11,023 nt of DNA, from the UHGV virus genome UHGV-0053823. One strand, given 5' to 3'. Within the stretch, counting starts at the first letter, position 1, and the number at the start of each line of letters is the position of its first letter. The DNA is from a virus. Shown here piece after piece: positions 2,457-10,997 of this stretch. A model generated the notes under the pieces. The model was not told where the DNA came from. It worked only from the letters and a program-made list of their open reading frames with translations, and did not search any database. The position numbers and the translations under genes are program-made.

Positions 2457-2756
2457 ATGACATATGAAGTCATCATTACCCCCGAGGCCGAACAGCAGAT
2501 AATAAACCTGCACAGATATATAACGGAGAAAGCAGGAAGCGTCATTGCTGACAATTATGCCAATGCGCTTCTTGATTATCTTGATGGGTTTTCTACATTC
2601 CCGCATCGGGGCAATAAACGCGATGATATTCGCCAGGGAATGCGGGTAACTCACTTCCGCCACAGAACGATTATTGCTTTTGCCGTTGACGGCAATAAAG
2701 TCTTTATCGCGGGTATTTATCATGGTGGGCAAAGCTATGAAGCCGATTTCTTATAA
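2457..2756 (+). CDS. Type II toxin, ParE/RelE superfamily
   Basis: 99-aa ORF starting 5 nt after the antitoxin stop. Size and C-terminal pattern (RVTHFRHRTIIAFAVDGNKVFIAGIYHGGQSYEADF) are typical of ParE/RelE-fold toxins; antitoxin-toxin gene order fits. Confidence 0.75.
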   Translation: MTYEVIITPEAEQQIINLHRYITEKAGSVIADNYANALLDYLDGFSTFPHRGNKRDDIRQGMRVTHFRHRTIIAFAVDGNKVFIAGIYHGGQSYEADFL

Positions 2757-2836
2757 ACTTTTACCCACATCATTCCGGTGTTAAAATAAACCGTCCGCCC
2801 CCTCTCTTACTGGCGGATTCGTAGGCTATATAAATC

Positions 2837-2873
2837 AAAGATCCCGGCTCGTGTATGCGTCAGGATCTTTTTT
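2837..2873. terminator. Probable bidirectional intrinsic terminator between convergent genes
   Basis: Stem AAAGATCC / GGATCTTT (8 bp) around an 18-nt loop, followed by TTTTTT on the plus strand and a U-rich tract on the minus strand. Lies between the toxin stop (2756) and the end of the minus-strand operon (2881). Confidence 0.45.
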
Positions 2874-2880
2874 CGGTGAT

Positions 2881-2964
2881 TTATCCCCAGCGGCAAATCG
2901 CATACACCACCAGCGCCACCGCCATTGCAATTCCTACCGTTGTGAATGCTTCAGGCCAGGTCAT
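2881..2964 (-). CDS. 27-aa hydrophobic peptide (MTWPEAFTTVGIAMAVALVVYAICRWG), predicted single-pass membrane peptide
   Basis: Too short for the ORF track. Its ATG overlaps the DUF551 gene stop (ATGA) and has a GGAGGA SD 9 nt upstream. Hydrophobic core of about 20 residues flanked by charged or aromatic ends; followed by the terminator hairpin. Confidence 0.4.
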   Translation of the reverse strand: MTWPEAFTTVGIAMAVALVVYAICRWG

Positions 2965-3623
2965 CGTAAAATATCCTCCACGCTTATCAGTCCGTTCCGC
3001 TCCAGATAACTCATCGCCTTATCCGGTAATTTGCAGTCTGGCTTCGCTTTCCTCAGTTGACTGACCAATTGCTTAACCAGCATGGTTAATTCGTTAACCT
3101 GTTTTCCGGATGCTTGTGGATTGTCAGTTTTACCAGAAGTGTCGGTACAGTCGGCGTTCCCACTCTTCTCCTCCTGCGGCGGTTCCGGTAGCGGCATCCA
3201 GTGAGTTGCTTGCTCAATACCATTACCCGGCTTAATCGTTGCATCTCCGCGCCGGAATGTGCTTCCGGTATAGCGTGCGGAGCATATTAGCGGCTCAACC
3301 AGATCACTATCGAAATTCACCGAAATAAGTACGTTCTGATTCTTTTTCGGCATTCGCTCACTACAGCTTATCCAACCATCCGGAGTTACCGAAACTGGCG
3401 ACGCGGCATATAGTGGTTTAGGCGATATCTCCGCGCGTTTTGCGTATGCTTCAACTGTGTCAGGGTTAAACAGGATTATGTTTTCACCGCATTCCCACGC
3501 CACCGGCTCTGCTTCCAGCGATGCCAGCGCAATACGTGCAATTTGTCGAATCTCATCGTTAACGTTGCACATGCGCGGGTCATTGACGTACTGCTCAATG
3601 CGTTCTCTGCTAATAGTGGCCAT
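2961..3623 (-). CDS. DUF551 domain phage protein with Ea22-like N-terminal segment
   Basis: 220-aa ORF containing the WISCSERMPKKNQNVLISV ... THWMPLPEPP signature of DUF551. ATG start with AAAGGAGAG SD, 1 nt after the upstream stop. Confidence 0.7.
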   Translation of the reverse strand: MATISRERIEQYVNDPRMCNVNDEIRQIARIALASLEAEPVAWECGENIILFNPDTVEAYAKRAEISPKPLYAASPVSVTPDGWISCSERMPKKNQNVLISVNFDSDLVEPLICSARYTGSTFRRGDATIKPGNGIEQATHWMPLPEPPQEEKSGNADCTDTSGKTDNPQASGKQVNELTMLVKQLVSQLRKAKPDCKLPDKAMSYLERNGLISVEDILR

Positions 3624-3624
3624 C

Positions 3625-3957
3625 TCACTCTCCTTTGATGCGAATGCCAGCGACGCGTAGTGCGTGTTCTAAGTCAATCAGGCAAAGCCAACTGCCATTT
3701 TCTTTAGGTATCATGACATGCCGCTTATCAGCATTTATTGGGTGCCCATATCGAAGGTCGTAGCGAGTCGGTAATTGAACTTCCCTCGCTTCCAGTTCTG
3801 CAATGTGTTTGTTTTTAGCTTCTAGTTCATCCAGCAGCGCCAGCACAACCTGCGGTGTGACTTTCATACGAAATGCCAGCAATTTTTGTGGTGTGGCTAC
3901 TATTTTTATTGCTTCTGCCGCCTCACGCAGTGCCTGATAGTTAATTTCGGTTGTCAT
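3625..3957 (-). CDS. Ead/Ea22-like protein (short form)
   Basis: 110-aa ORF with ALREAAEA and VVLALLDELEAKNKHIAELEAR coiled-coil motifs typical of Ead/Ea22-like early proteins. Start overlaps the upstream stop (ATGA). Confidence 0.6.
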   Translation of the reverse strand: MTTEINYQALREAAEAIKIVATPQKLLAFRMKVTPQVVLALLDELEAKNKHIAELEAREVQLPTRYDLRYGHPINADKRHVMIPKENGSWLCLIDLEHALRVAGIRIKGE

Positions 3958-4832
3958 GCCACCACCTCTTCGAATTTCAACTCCAATTGATCACCCCAGA
4001 TTTCACATGATTCGGAACACGAACCAGTATCAAACCGCCTGGCTTGCACCATCGCCTGATACAAATTACTGTAGTCACTGTCGGCATACATTCTGGCAAT
4101 CCCGTCAAGCGTCAGGTGGCCACGGTACATAACGTCTTTTCCTGTTCTGCGATGACCATCCCTGACGTGTTTGCCTGTAACCAGTTCATTAAAAAACCGC
4201 ATCAGACCAGGTTCGTCTTTACATGCAAGCCCCAGCTTTTGCGTTGACTTTTTGATGCAGAAAACACAGTTCCCGAGGTGCTCTGGGATTTGCAAATCAA
4301 AAGGTTGTGCTCGCCACCACCGGATAACATCCGACTTATCAAAATGTGACAGTTCGGCAAGATACCGGACGCCCGGTTTCGGTTTCAGCCTACGGTGTTC
4401 GTCCGCACGAATACCCAGCCATGTGATGTAATTCCCTCGTCCGAAATGGTCATCGCAATATTTCGTGAAAGGGGTGAGTTTTAGCCTGTCAGTACAGAAC
4501 GCGCCGCCGATGTATGGCGTGCCGTACTTTTTAACCATATCCATAAACGGTTTAAGCACCGGCATTCGCGTCTGAATATCCTTTGGTTCCCATTCCGTAT
4601 AACTATTTGGCTGCCCAAGCTCTGGATTTATATCGACCTGCAACACGGTTAGTGGAATATCCCAGAACTTCACGACTTCCCGAATAAATCGGTATGTCAG
4701 CGGGTGTTCACATCCCGTATCCATGAATATGTAATGAACGTTTTCACCTGCCTTTCTGCGTTGCTCCATAAGGTGAACGAGATACGCCGATGTACGACCG
4801 CCTGAAAAACTCACAACATGATGAGCGCTCAT
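3954..4832 (-). CDS. PAPS reductase-like / PP-loop ATP pyrophosphatase family enzyme
   Basis: 292-aa ORF with N-terminal PP-loop motif VVSFSGGRTSAYL and C-terminal cysteine pairs (NCVFC, GSCSESC) suggesting a metal or Fe-S site. ATG start at 4832. Confidence 0.7.
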   Translation of the reverse strand: MSAHHVVSFSGGRTSAYLVHLMEQRRKAGENVHYIFMDTGCEHPLTYRFIREVVKFWDIPLTVLQVDINPELGQPNSYTEWEPKDIQTRMPVLKPFMDMVKKYGTPYIGGAFCTDRLKLTPFTKYCDDHFGRGNYITWLGIRADEHRRLKPKPGVRYLAELSHFDKSDVIRWWRAQPFDLQIPEHLGNCVFCIKKSTQKLGLACKDEPGLMRFFNELVTGKHVRDGHRRTGKDVMYRGHLTLDGIARMYADSDYSNLYQAMVQARRFDTGSCSESCEIWGDQLELKFEEVVA

Positions 4833-4961: not shown

Positions 4962-5183
4962 ATGGATCAAAATGAAAAAATTAAAATCGCATTTCTTGCC
5001 GCTTCAAACGCCACGGCTTTATTTATTAACACTCCGCACTATCGCCAAAAATTAGAAGAAAAGCCGGGACTAAAGAAAACAACAATGAACCCAGAGTTCA
5101 TTTTTAAGAACGAATTTAGTCTTCACATGAAGCGCCTTTCTGAAATTCTAAATGCTCATCAAGCCAGTCCAGATCGGGATTGA
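4962..5183 (+). CDS. Hypothetical 73-aa protein on the opposite strand (candidate moron)
   Basis: ATG at 4962 preceded by a near-perfect SD (TAAGGAGGgtgaaATG, 5-nt spacing). AT-rich coding sequence unlike its flanks. The 3' end overlaps the 3' end of the convergent 187-aa gene by 68 nt. No recognisable domain. Confidence 0.35.
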   Translation: MDQNEKIKIAFLAASNATALFINTPHYRQKLEEKPGLKKTTMNPEFIFKNEFSLHMKRLSEILNAHQASPDRD

Positions 5184-5679
5184 TACGCACCAGTTCGAGT
5201 GAATATTCCATGGCATCCCTGGCGTACTCTTTCGGGATGCCATTTTCTTCAAGAATATCCTGAACTTTCTGGCGAATAACCGGAACCAGGAAAAGAAGTT
5301 TTGTTTCACGATTGCCAAGTAGTTCTTCCAGATCGCGCGTAGCCTCTTCCAGATCGCGCGTGGCCTCTTCTGGATAGCGATTGCCCGGTATTGATTCCTG
5401 CGAATTATTCAGTCTTTCAACAGAATTAATTGATTTATCGTTTTCTGTTATATTGCGTTTGATGTTTTGTTGACCTTTATTAAGGCAGCAATTTTGAATA
5501 TGGTCCTTGTGCTTTTCATTATCATAAGCATACAGCCCGACAAAAATATCCCGCAAGTTTCGGGAGATATTTTCCAGATTCGCCTTTGGTTCTTTTCTTA
5601 AATCAACCACCGATAAATGAGCTTTAAGCGTATCCGCAGCTACTTTCTGAATGTCCTCGGGTAAATCTTTAAATTGCAT
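5116..5679 (-). CDS. Hypothetical 187-aa protein with an internal EATRDLE tandem repeat
   Basis: ATG start with GAGGA SD 8 nt upstream; AT-rich, charged, probably helical protein. No family recognised. Confidence 0.55.
   Translation of the reverse strand: MQFKDLPEDIQKVAADTLKAHLSVVDLRKEPKANLENISRNLRDIFVGLYAYDNEKHKDHIQNCCLNKGQQNIKRNITENDKSINSVERLNNSQESIPGNRYPEEATRDLEEATRDLEELLGNRETKLLFLVPVIRQKVQDILEENGIPKEYARDAMEYSLELVRINPDLDWLDEHLEFQKGASCED
5325..5379. repeat. In-frame 21-bp tandem repeat (two units plus a degenerate third) inside the 187-aa gene
   Basis: CTTCCAGATCGCGCGTAGCCT followed by CTTCCAGATCGCGCGTGGCCT (1 mismatch), then a partial third unit CTTCTGGATAGCG. Encodes the repeated EATRDLE heptad on the minus strand. 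Confidence 0.8.
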
Positions 5680-7068: not shown

Positions 7069-7656
7069 TTAAAAACTATCGCCGCCGTACTGCCAGTAAC
7101 CCGGGTCGTCCGTGTGATTCGGGTTTGCGTTTTTGCTGCGATTGTCTTTGTCTTTGAGAGTGGAAGCTATATTTGCTACAGTTTCTGGTTTCTTTCCTTC
7201 TGCCTTTTCTTTCAGGGTTTGCCCTGTTTCTGCAATGAATGGAATACGGATTTCCATCTGGTAACTGTCTGCGCCAGTCTTTTTGTTTATGGTTAATACT
7301 TTCTGTAGCACCAACCCGATTTTCTTTCCGTGGAATTCAGGGGCAACGTATTTACTGACGGAAACCATATGTTGCGTTAACTGCCTGATTCCTGCACATC
7401 CCATCATTGCATGAACAATATTTGCACCAAACTTGTTTTCCGTTCCGTCATTTTTCTGAACACAAACACTGAGATACTGAATTTTGCGTCCGTCGTCGGA
7501 TTCTCCAGAAAACTCAATGAATCGGGCACCTTTTTCTGATTGCTTGAGTTCTGCTTCAGTAATGGTAATGATATGCGCACCTGTTTCGGTAATGAAACCA
7601 CCTTGTCCGGCGGTCAGTGCTGCTTCTTCGTTATAAGTAAAAATCACTTCATCCAT
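7069..7656 (-). CDS. Hypothetical 195-aa protein immediately downstream of exo
   Basis: ATG start 7 nt after the exo stop. C-terminal region is Lys-rich then acidic/aromatic, ending ...DDPGYWQYGGDSF. No confident family assignment. Confidence 0.55.
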   Translation of the reverse strand: MDEVIFTYNEEAALTAGQGGFITETGAHIITITEAELKQSEKGARFIEFSGESDDGRKIQYLSVCVQKNDGTENKFGANIVHAMMGCAGIRQLTQHMVSVSKYVAPEFHGKKIGLVLQKVLTINKKTGADSYQMEIRIPFIAETGQTLKEKAEGKKPETVANIASTLKDKDNRSKNANPNHTDDPGYWQYGGDSF

Positions 7657-10832: not shown

Positions 10833-10997
10833 GGTGGCAGCCTCCTTGATTGGTGATTGATAACCACCGCCGGAGGTCCTAAACTCGCTGGCGGTGGACT
10901 GTACAGGGTTAGGACTACTGGCAATCAAGGGAACCAGCCCGACCGAAGTCGGCCCCATACAGCCCACCATTGATAAGATGTGCGTGCATGTCGATAC

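Follow-up and report, generated by a model that had tools for sequence, protein, structure and literature searches.

A 27-codon micro-ORF forms the end of a long early operon in a lambdoid prophage of E. coli; as judged from the conservation pattern of its copies, it very probably constitutes a genuine protein-coding gene. It is reasonably likely that its product is a translationally coupled, single-pass inner-membrane micro-protein, made together with the early phage genes and probably acting via helix packing.

In the window (the whole stretch of 11,023 nucleotides that was analysed), the micro-gene occupies positions 2881-2964 on the minus strand, with its ATG at 2964-2962 and its TAA at 2883-2881, and encodes the peptide MTWPEAFTTVGIAMAVALVVYAICRWG. 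The feature is defined by sequence, conservation, codon periodicity and a profile-defined family, and a single transmembrane helix is predicted for its product. The 3' end of the preceding DUF551 gene reads ...GAG GAT ATT TTA CGA TGA, and its TGA (2963-2961) shares an ATGA (2961-2964, minus strand) with the ATG of the micro-ORF, a stop/start overlap that would serve as the translational-coupling junction between both genes. A Shine-Dalgarno (SD) sequence, GGAGGA, is located 9 nt 5' of the ATG, at 2974-2979 on the same strand and within the last DUF551 codons. An earlier note on this DNA had described the 27-aa ORF, its ATGA overlap and the preceding GGAGGA; the positions of ATG and TAA, the translation and both initiation signals agree with that description, which left the strand unstated.

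The same note considered the product to look like a single transmembrane helix, and the mean Kyte-Doolittle hydropathy of 2.27 over residues 7-24, an 18-residue hydrophobic core, is consistent with this view. The hydrophobic stretch is uninterrupted, reaches the length needed to span the bilayer (about 18 or more residues) and is conserved as hydrophobic, which would place the predicted peptide among the small single-pass membrane proteins. Processing as a lipoprotein was rejected on inspection, because the sequence ...Y-[AS]-I-C has an isoleucine at position -1 and does not fit a lipobox. With 21 ORFs of at least 20 aa overlapping the 1-kb stretch around it as chance background, the micro-ORF is not beyond chance by its size alone, and its significance comes from the conservation pattern.

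The description of the micro-ORF as unannotated holds for all ten RefSeq and phage records inspected, and in every record opened the corresponding stretch is an unannotated gap just 3' of an annotated gene; in a few GenBank entries, the 27-aa product is nevertheless given, under the name hypothetical protein (AOM45384.1, ETI78407.1 and ETJ68712.1). A 45-aa extended surrogate query (P0018) retrieved only three proteins, since this ORF is seldom predicted by gene callers. The peptide string does not occur in the searchable text and supplements of ribosome-profiling and micro-proteome papers, including the supplements of Huecker 2017 (PMC5597208), of the preprint 'Cryptic Bacterial Microproteome' (PMC11188072) and of PIRT-Seq (PMC12350097). 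Searchable literature on the peptide string, DUF551, Ea22 and small proteins likewise contains no description of it.

The gene immediately upstream (2961-3623, minus strand) encodes a 220-aa protein with a DUF551 domain at residues 83-150, followed by a C-terminal extension of about 70 aa that ends in ...SVEDILR. Its assignment to DUF551, already made in the earlier note, is borne out by a match to PF04448 with 76.6 bits (gathering threshold 22, E = 2.8e-21). The C-terminal extension, at about 2961-3170 of the window, has the appearance of a further portable module. Along the minus strand, the order of genes is a Rha/Ash-type regulator, RecT, a YqaJ exonuclease, DUF2303 (YfdQ-like), a PAPS-reductase-like protein, an Ea22-like protein, DUF551 and the micro-ORF, followed by a hairpin. 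No promoter-like site was predicted on the minus strand between 2400 and 3700; having no predicted promoter of its own, the micro-ORF should be silent in the repressed prophage.

Some further features of this operon were recorded. The PAPS-reductase-like domain (PF01507, E = 2.4e-9) forms the N-terminal part of a 292-aa protein encoded at 3954-4832 on the minus strand, two genes upstream of the micro-ORF and adjoining the Ea22-like gene, and the ORFs at 5116-5679 and 7069-7656 are without Pfam match. At 10887-10974 on the minus strand, a full-length match to the C4 antisense RNA family (RF01695, 78.9 bits, E = 1.5e-14) overlaps the Rha/Ash-type gene (10970->10188) at the 5' end of the latter. 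This layout, with which the operon opens, resembles the immI c4-icd-ant arrangement of P1 and P7.

Directly 3' of the micro-ORF lies the hairpin (2831-2883), with a core stem-loop at 2838-2869 and flanking A/T tracts. It folds with -24.7 kcal/mol (z = -1.75), and pairing between the A-tract and the U-tract, which includes the UAA stop codon, extends the core to 2883-2831. On the plus strand the hairpin is followed by a run of six T, while the minus-strand tail is TTTGATTTAT, and the element looks more canonical as a terminator for the plus-strand parDE genes than for the minus strand. It is reasonable to regard it as a terminator-like element common to two convergent operons. A consensus terminator scan did not report the hairpin at 2869-2838, because its loop exceeds the limit of the scan. 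The claim that the micro-ORF is the last gene before the terminator is thus upheld as far as the position of the hairpin is concerned, while the terminator function is deduced from the fold. The convergent plus-strand pair (2131-2756; Pfam PF03693 and PF05016) encodes a ParD/ParE toxin-antitoxin system, which adjoins the micro-gene without belonging to it and shows where the minus-strand operon ends; DUF968 and RusA genes follow beyond it. The segment 2760-3100 of the window is 100% identical to E. coli ECOR29, and the RefSeq annotation of this identical locus supports the ParD/ParE assignment.

The coding capacity of the micro-ORF was assessed on 120 intact 27-codon copies, including the window and phage and genome loci. 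They reduce to 53 different nucleotide sequences, which encode 30 different peptides. The first eight codons, written as a degenerate pattern, had yielded 120 IMG/VR loci, and variability, pN/pS and substitution statistics were restricted to codons 9-27, outside the part constrained by this pattern. All 53 distinct copies are 27 codons long, and many of them are synonymous variants that specify the commonest peptide. Their stop codon is TAA in 45, TGA in seven and TAG in one. Variability is highest at the third codon position (0.183), followed by the first (0.103) and the second (0.059). Of the 118 single-nucleotide codon changes on a minimum spanning tree, 66 are synonymous and 52 nonsynonymous, and 72 fall on third positions; the synonymous share of 56% compares with 26% expected under random mutation (binomial p ~1e-11). 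The pooled pN/pS of 0.45 indicates only moderate constraint. A synonymous-site pattern inconsistent with coding, which the earlier note had named as refuting, was looked for, and the excess of third-position and synonymous changes is of the opposite kind. The conservation of the ORF among relatives, proposed there as a check, is also evident: start, SD, stop/start coupling, length and hydrophobicity are kept across unrelated flanks.

Amino-acid replacements are conservative (mean BLOSUM62 of +0.25), and hydropathy values of intact family variants range from 1.4 to 2.8, compared to 0.62 for one frameshifted copy. Length changes inside the frame comprise a two-codon deletion (L050) and, in other family members (P0032, P0033, P0034 and P0037), in-frame hexanucleotide expansions of the type (AM)n or (AV)n within the helix, which lengthen the peptide to 31-35 aa and are probably the result of slippage in runs of GCGATG or GCGGTG. 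About 6-7% of the copies are damaged by a premature stop, a frameshift, read-through or, in Shigella phage POCJ13, a stop at Trp-3. The micro-gene is thus dispensable in prophages, and such damage is normal for prophage genes. In POCJ13 (L007:1201-1284), TAG replaces the codon of the invariant tryptophan (MT*PEAF...), and this copy may be a pseudogene or reflect a sequencing error. The POCJ13 record annotates a CDS on the opposite strand over the same bases, which is probably spurious.

Of 5426 complete E. coli genomes, 1633 (about 30%) contain the full-length 84-nt unit, with 3110 copies in total, up to seven per genome and 163 on plasmids. It is also carried by 96 phage records, including 933W, VT2-Sakai, VT1-Sakai, BP-4795, Min27, ArgO145 and the virulent Av-05, and by 178 mostly non-mobilizable plasmids from Escherichia, Salmonella and Klebsiella, which among the matches listed are largely of about 90-130 kb. 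When the segment 2760-3100 of the window served as query, many phages and genomes matched only its positions 121-205, corresponding to window 2880-2964 and hence to the ORF alone. In 933W, VT2-Sakai and other copies, the similarity ends at the start and stop codons of the micro-ORF, and the flanks are unrelated.

A scan of one genome per species with the degenerate pattern gave 38 loci, and the real ones are confined to E. coli and Shigella. The remaining loci are chance matches in about the expected number; those in Bacteroidales lie antisense within an ABC-permease gene, and those in Actinoallomurus and Dehalococcoidia form sets of related matches within long ORFs. One match in a Pseudobdellovibrionaceae MAG (CAZFPB010000007.1, L137:7633-7655, minus strand; MTWPEAFAIVGVAFATGAS...) shares 14 of its first 15 residues with a viral peptide (L015), the first eight of these being fixed by the search pattern, and is in frame inside a longer high-GC ORF with a 40-residue polar tail; it may be either a true relative or a coincidence. 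The E. coli K-12 prophage CPS-53 shows the same yfdQ...torI layout; it is devoid of a copy of the peptide, and its small gene ypdJ is unrelated.

The junction with the upstream gene was compared in 129 related loci. In 88 of them, the ATG overlaps the stop of an upstream ORF of 50 or more codons as ATGA; ATGATGA is found in 18, TGAATGATG in 13 and TAATG in one, while eight loci are without such an upstream ORF. In the ATGATGA junctions the overlap is restored by an extra Met codon. Among the distinct 20-nt contexts upstream of the ATG, all but one (37 of 38) have a suitably spaced SD core of 4 nt or more. The upstream proteins, although otherwise unrelated, share their last codons (...PEPPQEVNQ, ...KNIEQKVNQ and ...KKKGMNQ; ...APKQEGNNG in Salmonella), because these encode the SD of the micro-ORF. 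They belong to at least five families, including DUF551, DUF551 with the VEDILR extension as in this window, Ea22-like coiled-coil proteins (933W p77), EaA and an annotated dATP/dGTP pyrophosphohydrolase; a DUF551-like domain occurs in 47 of 100 upstream genes. At least 12 contexts are found downstream, among them hok/sok, xis-int, the parDE terminator or further genes. The variety of neighbours on both sides indicates that the SD and the 27 codons form an independent mosaic cassette. In H19J, its slot is held by a full-size gene.

In 933W, E. coli 319, FP4 and EcPF40 (L001:1136-1410, L003, L182 and L183), a hok gene (hokW/mokW/sokW or hokD) is located within a few hundred bases 3' of the micro-ORF. 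As parDE is found in this window and hok elsewhere, different addiction modules occupy the position just after the micro-ORF. Natural in-frame fusions between an Ea22-like coiled-coil protein and a family peptide (...LPPLESNK-MSWPDAFAIAGVAMSIALIVFAICRWG) were also observed (L188:3001-3432, L189 and L190). They adjoin DUF4222, xis and int in a lambdoid prophage, retain the internal GGAG and ATG, and occur in at least six contigs from at least three samples with two N-terminal architectures (P0045 and P0046). These fusions hint at a functional link between the micro-peptide and this class of upstream genes; they were given little weight, because they are rare, keep the internal SD and ATG and imply the opposite topology. 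The grouping of the micro-peptide with 121-aa DUF551 proteins in one sequence cluster is an artefact, as those proteins do not contain the peptide.

A profile built from four members and compared to 1.84 billion representative proteins matched 68 clusters with E <= 1e-3, including 16 with E <= 1e-10; their proteins are almost all 25-50 aa long, and the matches begin at or near residue 1. The consensus of 61 tryptophan-aligned representatives reads M-[TSN]-W-P-E-A-F-x-x-V-G-[IV]-A-x-A-[VI]-A-x-x-x-[YW]-x-x-x-[RK]. W3 and G11 are invariant in these representatives, and P4 (57/61), E5, A6 (59/61), F7, V10, A13 (53/61), A15 (56/61) and A17 (53/61) are nearly invariant in the family. The WPEAF-helix family, as defined here, is characterised by an N-terminal [TSN]-W-P-[ED]-A-F, V10-G11, alanines at 13, 15 and 17, an aromatic residue near position 21 and a basic one near 25; its members are about 23-45 aa long. 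The window peptide shows every one of these features. Salmonella phage SPN3UB and related viral contigs encode a shorter relative, MNWPDAFLYVGIAWAFAYAITRI, which follows Eaa or DUF551-type genes and likewise has the ATGA overlap and an SD; MNWPEAFAIVGVAFAVAYLFSHMV and similar peptides occur in AT-rich viral contigs. Distant members are found in arrays of small same-strand genes without Pfam hits, and two of the four inspected overlap the upstream gene by 4 nt. None of the models in Pfam, NCBIfam and PHROGs covers the family; these libraries returned only sub-threshold hydrophobic noise (KdpF, POT family, DUF883_C, T4SS pilin and phrog_4612). The WPEAF-helix peptides are best filed as a new, undescribed family that is not in any library.

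These features suggest the following course of events. Ribosomes that finish the DUF551 gene, or that are recruited by GGAGGA, would start at the overlapping ATG and produce the 27-residue peptide whenever the early operon is transcribed. The peptide would consist of a single hydrophobic helix from about F7 to C24, preceded by the acidic, interfacial cap W-P-E-A-F and followed by an aromatic and basic C-terminus (Y21 ... R25-W26-G27), and most likely inserts into the inner membrane with its N-terminus out and its C-terminus in. This orientation is favoured by the positive-inside rule, since throughout the family the helix has acidic residues on its N-terminal side and basic ones on its C-terminal side, although the number of charged residues behind this deduction is very small; the natural fusion to an Ea22-like protein of cytoplasmic type would point to the reverse topology. 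When computed from the consensus, the helix displays two small-residue stripes on roughly opposite faces, G11/A15 (with S22) and A6/A13/A17. Stripes of this type usually mark the tight packing of helices against each other, and it is from them that we infer this mode of action. The packing partner could be a larger inner-membrane protein of host or phage, or other copies of the peptide. The cassette itself has become joined by recombination to the 3' ends of several different early accessory genes, and its carriers are lambdoid prophages, phage-plasmids and one group of virulent phages.

The favoured reading has to be weighed against explanations in which the micro-ORF is not an independent gene for a functional peptide. 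It is highly improbable that the 84 nt represent a conserved non-coding element (a recombination 'linker', an sRNA or a part of the terminator) or that the real gene is on the other strand. The unit is found exactly at mosaic junctions, in line with a linker, but a three-base substitution periodicity is unexpected for a DNA or RNA element, the stop switches between TAA, TGA and TAG while the length stays fixed, no Rfam match was found within 2500-3300 at E <= 1, and there is essentially no conserved RNA fold (RNAalifold consensus of -2.4 kcal/mol). The antisense candidate is a plus-strand ORF of 69 aa (window 2855-3064) opposite to the micro-ORF and the end of the DUF551 gene. Its frame is open in all 53 variants, with pN/pS and synonymous statistics equal to those of the micro-ORF, because wobble positions are shared between both frames. 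Against this ORF as a real gene, its start, end and length vary by context (14-136 aa, or without start), its replacements are less conservative (mean BLOSUM62 of -0.69 versus +0.25 in the sense frame), and the limits of similarity coincide with the start and stop codons of the sense frame. By these criteria, which are only indirect, the antisense frame appears to be excluded; it could still mislead automated screens for small ORFs or overlapping genes. Very improbable, too, is the idea that translation matters and the peptide does not, so that ribosomes would be kept on the mRNA up to the terminator for anti-polarity, mRNA stability or control of the hairpin. In favour of this idea, transcription units with the micro-ORF always have it as their final short cistron, in tight coupling with the gene upstream, and in this window the extended terminator stem takes in the UAA stop together with the AUCA behind it. 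Yet the sequence downstream is of at least 12 types (hok/sok, xis, the parDE terminator and others), and thus there is no common RNA target, while amino-acid identity and hydrophobicity are kept over nucleotide divergence and the W-P-E-A-F/G11 motif persists in very distant members. We likewise consider it very doubtful that the micro-ORF is a detachable C-terminal membrane anchor of the upstream Ea22/EaA/DUF551-type protein, joined to it by frameshifting or derived from a split gene. The in-frame fusions with their two architectures, the DUF551-like domain in about half of the upstream genes and the name 'DUF551 domain-containing protein', given by PGAP to partial products in the frame of the micro-ORF, would fit an anchor. 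It is contradicted by the absence of a conserved slippery sequence from the differing junctions (GATATTTTACGATGA, GGTGAATCAATGA and GTGAAATGATGA), by an SD and ATG of its own in every context, by upstream partners from unrelated families, by the great rarity of fusion clusters (1-3 contigs listed per cluster) and by distant members in which the peptide stands alone.

If the peptide does act in the membrane, a role as a membrane-targeting toxin or modulator, as put forward in the earlier note, is plausible by analogy, and a non-toxic modulator is somewhat more likely than a toxin. Packing of the helix on a partner protein, suggested by its small-residue faces, is a possibility to which we give slightly less than even confidence. 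A membrane-damaging effector (toxin, viroporin or holin-like), the principal competing explanation, is unlikely; it would oligomerise via the small-residue faces and dissipate the membrane potential, for example for host shut-down, for lysis timing or for exclusion of a superinfecting phage. Type I toxins and the helices of pinholins are of similar size and hydrophobicity, and two opposite stripes would allow ring-like self-association. The presence of the micro-ORF in the virulent phage Av-05, which implies a role that is not specific to lysogeny, is also compatible with damage. On the other hand, there is no match to Hok/Gef or any other toxin family, antisense RNA and an own promoter are absent from the predictions, no polar or charged residues inside the helix could line a pore, lysis genes do not adjoin, and up to seven copies per genome reside in repressed prophages with no obvious antidote. 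A more far-reaching proposal, that the WPEAF-helix peptide is a widespread, hitherto unrecognised phage effector on a portable cassette that works with variable Ea22/EaA/DUF551 early proteins, is improbable and has its basis in the hint provided by occasional stable in-frame fusions and strict coupling. Such an effector might bring the activity of these early proteins to the inner membrane or target one conserved host membrane protein. It could then influence the lysis-lysogeny choice, superinfection exclusion or the induction of Shiga-toxin phages.

Provided that the micro-protein is made, RefSeq annotation omits a gene of roughly a third of complete E. coli genomes, present in up to seven copies per genome and also in the reference Shiga-toxin phages 933W, VT1-Sakai and VT2-Sakai. 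It is located in the poorly understood early accessory regions (ea / exo-xis / nin), whose products modulate lysogeny and toxin-phage induction, and a conserved membrane peptide encoded there is a concrete and easily tested candidate for phage-host interaction. The micro-ORF also illustrates clearly how a micro-gene cassette moves from one gene context to another with its own ribosome-binding site, and the W-P-E-A-F ... G-x-A-x-A-x-A family could be added to annotation libraries.

Among known phage genes, gene 45.1 of phage N15 (L168:948-1004) occupies the same slot. This annotated ORF of 18 codons overlaps the gp45 stop with its ATG as ATGA, and the C-terminus of gp45 (...IEDILR) is homologous to that of the DUF551 protein in this window. 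Its product (MITTRKCMPAAAVSQETK) is unrelated in sequence and not hydrophobic, so that gene 45.1 is a positional analogue only and was rejected as a homologue. Pinholin S21-68 and the superinfection-exclusion proteins HK97 gp15 and T4 Imm are phage-encoded and membrane-embedded, as is predicted for the micro-peptide, and pinholins use small-residue (glycine-zipper-like) faces for helix packing. They are, however, two to three times longer, mostly contain two or more helices, and belong to lysis cassettes or are expressed from prophages, while the micro-gene encodes one helix and is located at the end of early accessory gene clusters. Holins and pinholins are encoded in lysis cassettes beside endolysin and spanin genes and usually have at least two transmembrane helices or a dual-start motif. 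A holin or pinholin assignment also disagrees with the single helix, the DUF551, Ea22-like and ParDE neighbours and the absence of lysis genes from the window.

The type I toxins Hok/Gef, Ibs, ShoB, DinQ, TisB and Ldr are hydrophobic peptides of 19-50 aa as well, and in many contexts a hok gene is found a few hundred bases 3' of the micro-ORF. Searches of Pfam, NCBIfam and PHROGs with five family members returned no Hok/Gef or other type I toxin family at E <= 10. Type I systems are defined by a cis-antisense RNA and a structured, separately transcribed toxin mRNA; Rfam, fold and promoter predictions gave no sign of either, and the flanks are unconserved. Unlike these toxins, the micro-ORF is coupled in its translation to the upstream gene of an early operon, and its helix is without internal charged residues.

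The closest resemblance in overall design is to the small single-pass membrane regulators of enterobacteria, such as KdpF (29 aa), MgtR (30 aa), PmrR (29 aa), MgtS (31 aa), AcrZ (49 aa) and CydX (37 aa), which act by binding to a larger membrane protein. The micro-peptide shares with the KdpF/MgtR/PmrR/AcrZ type its size, the one hydrophobic helix with almost no soluble part and the lack of a signal peptide; like these regulators, it is routinely missed by annotation, and their genes, too, are often short cistrons within operons. The sequences of the micro-peptide and these regulators are unrelated, and the micro-gene resides on phages, prophages and phage-plasmids instead of host operons. Membership in the KdpF family (TIGR02115) is contradicted by a best hit of 14.8 bits against a cutoff of 26.85, and the neighbours are phage genes and not a kdpFABC operon. 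The W-P-E-A-F cap and the G-x-A-x-A-x-A core are the micro-peptide's own and distinguish it from the enterobacterial regulators. By analogy with KdpF, MgtR, PmrR and AcrZ, the favoured mechanism is that the micro-peptide would likewise bind to a larger membrane protein.
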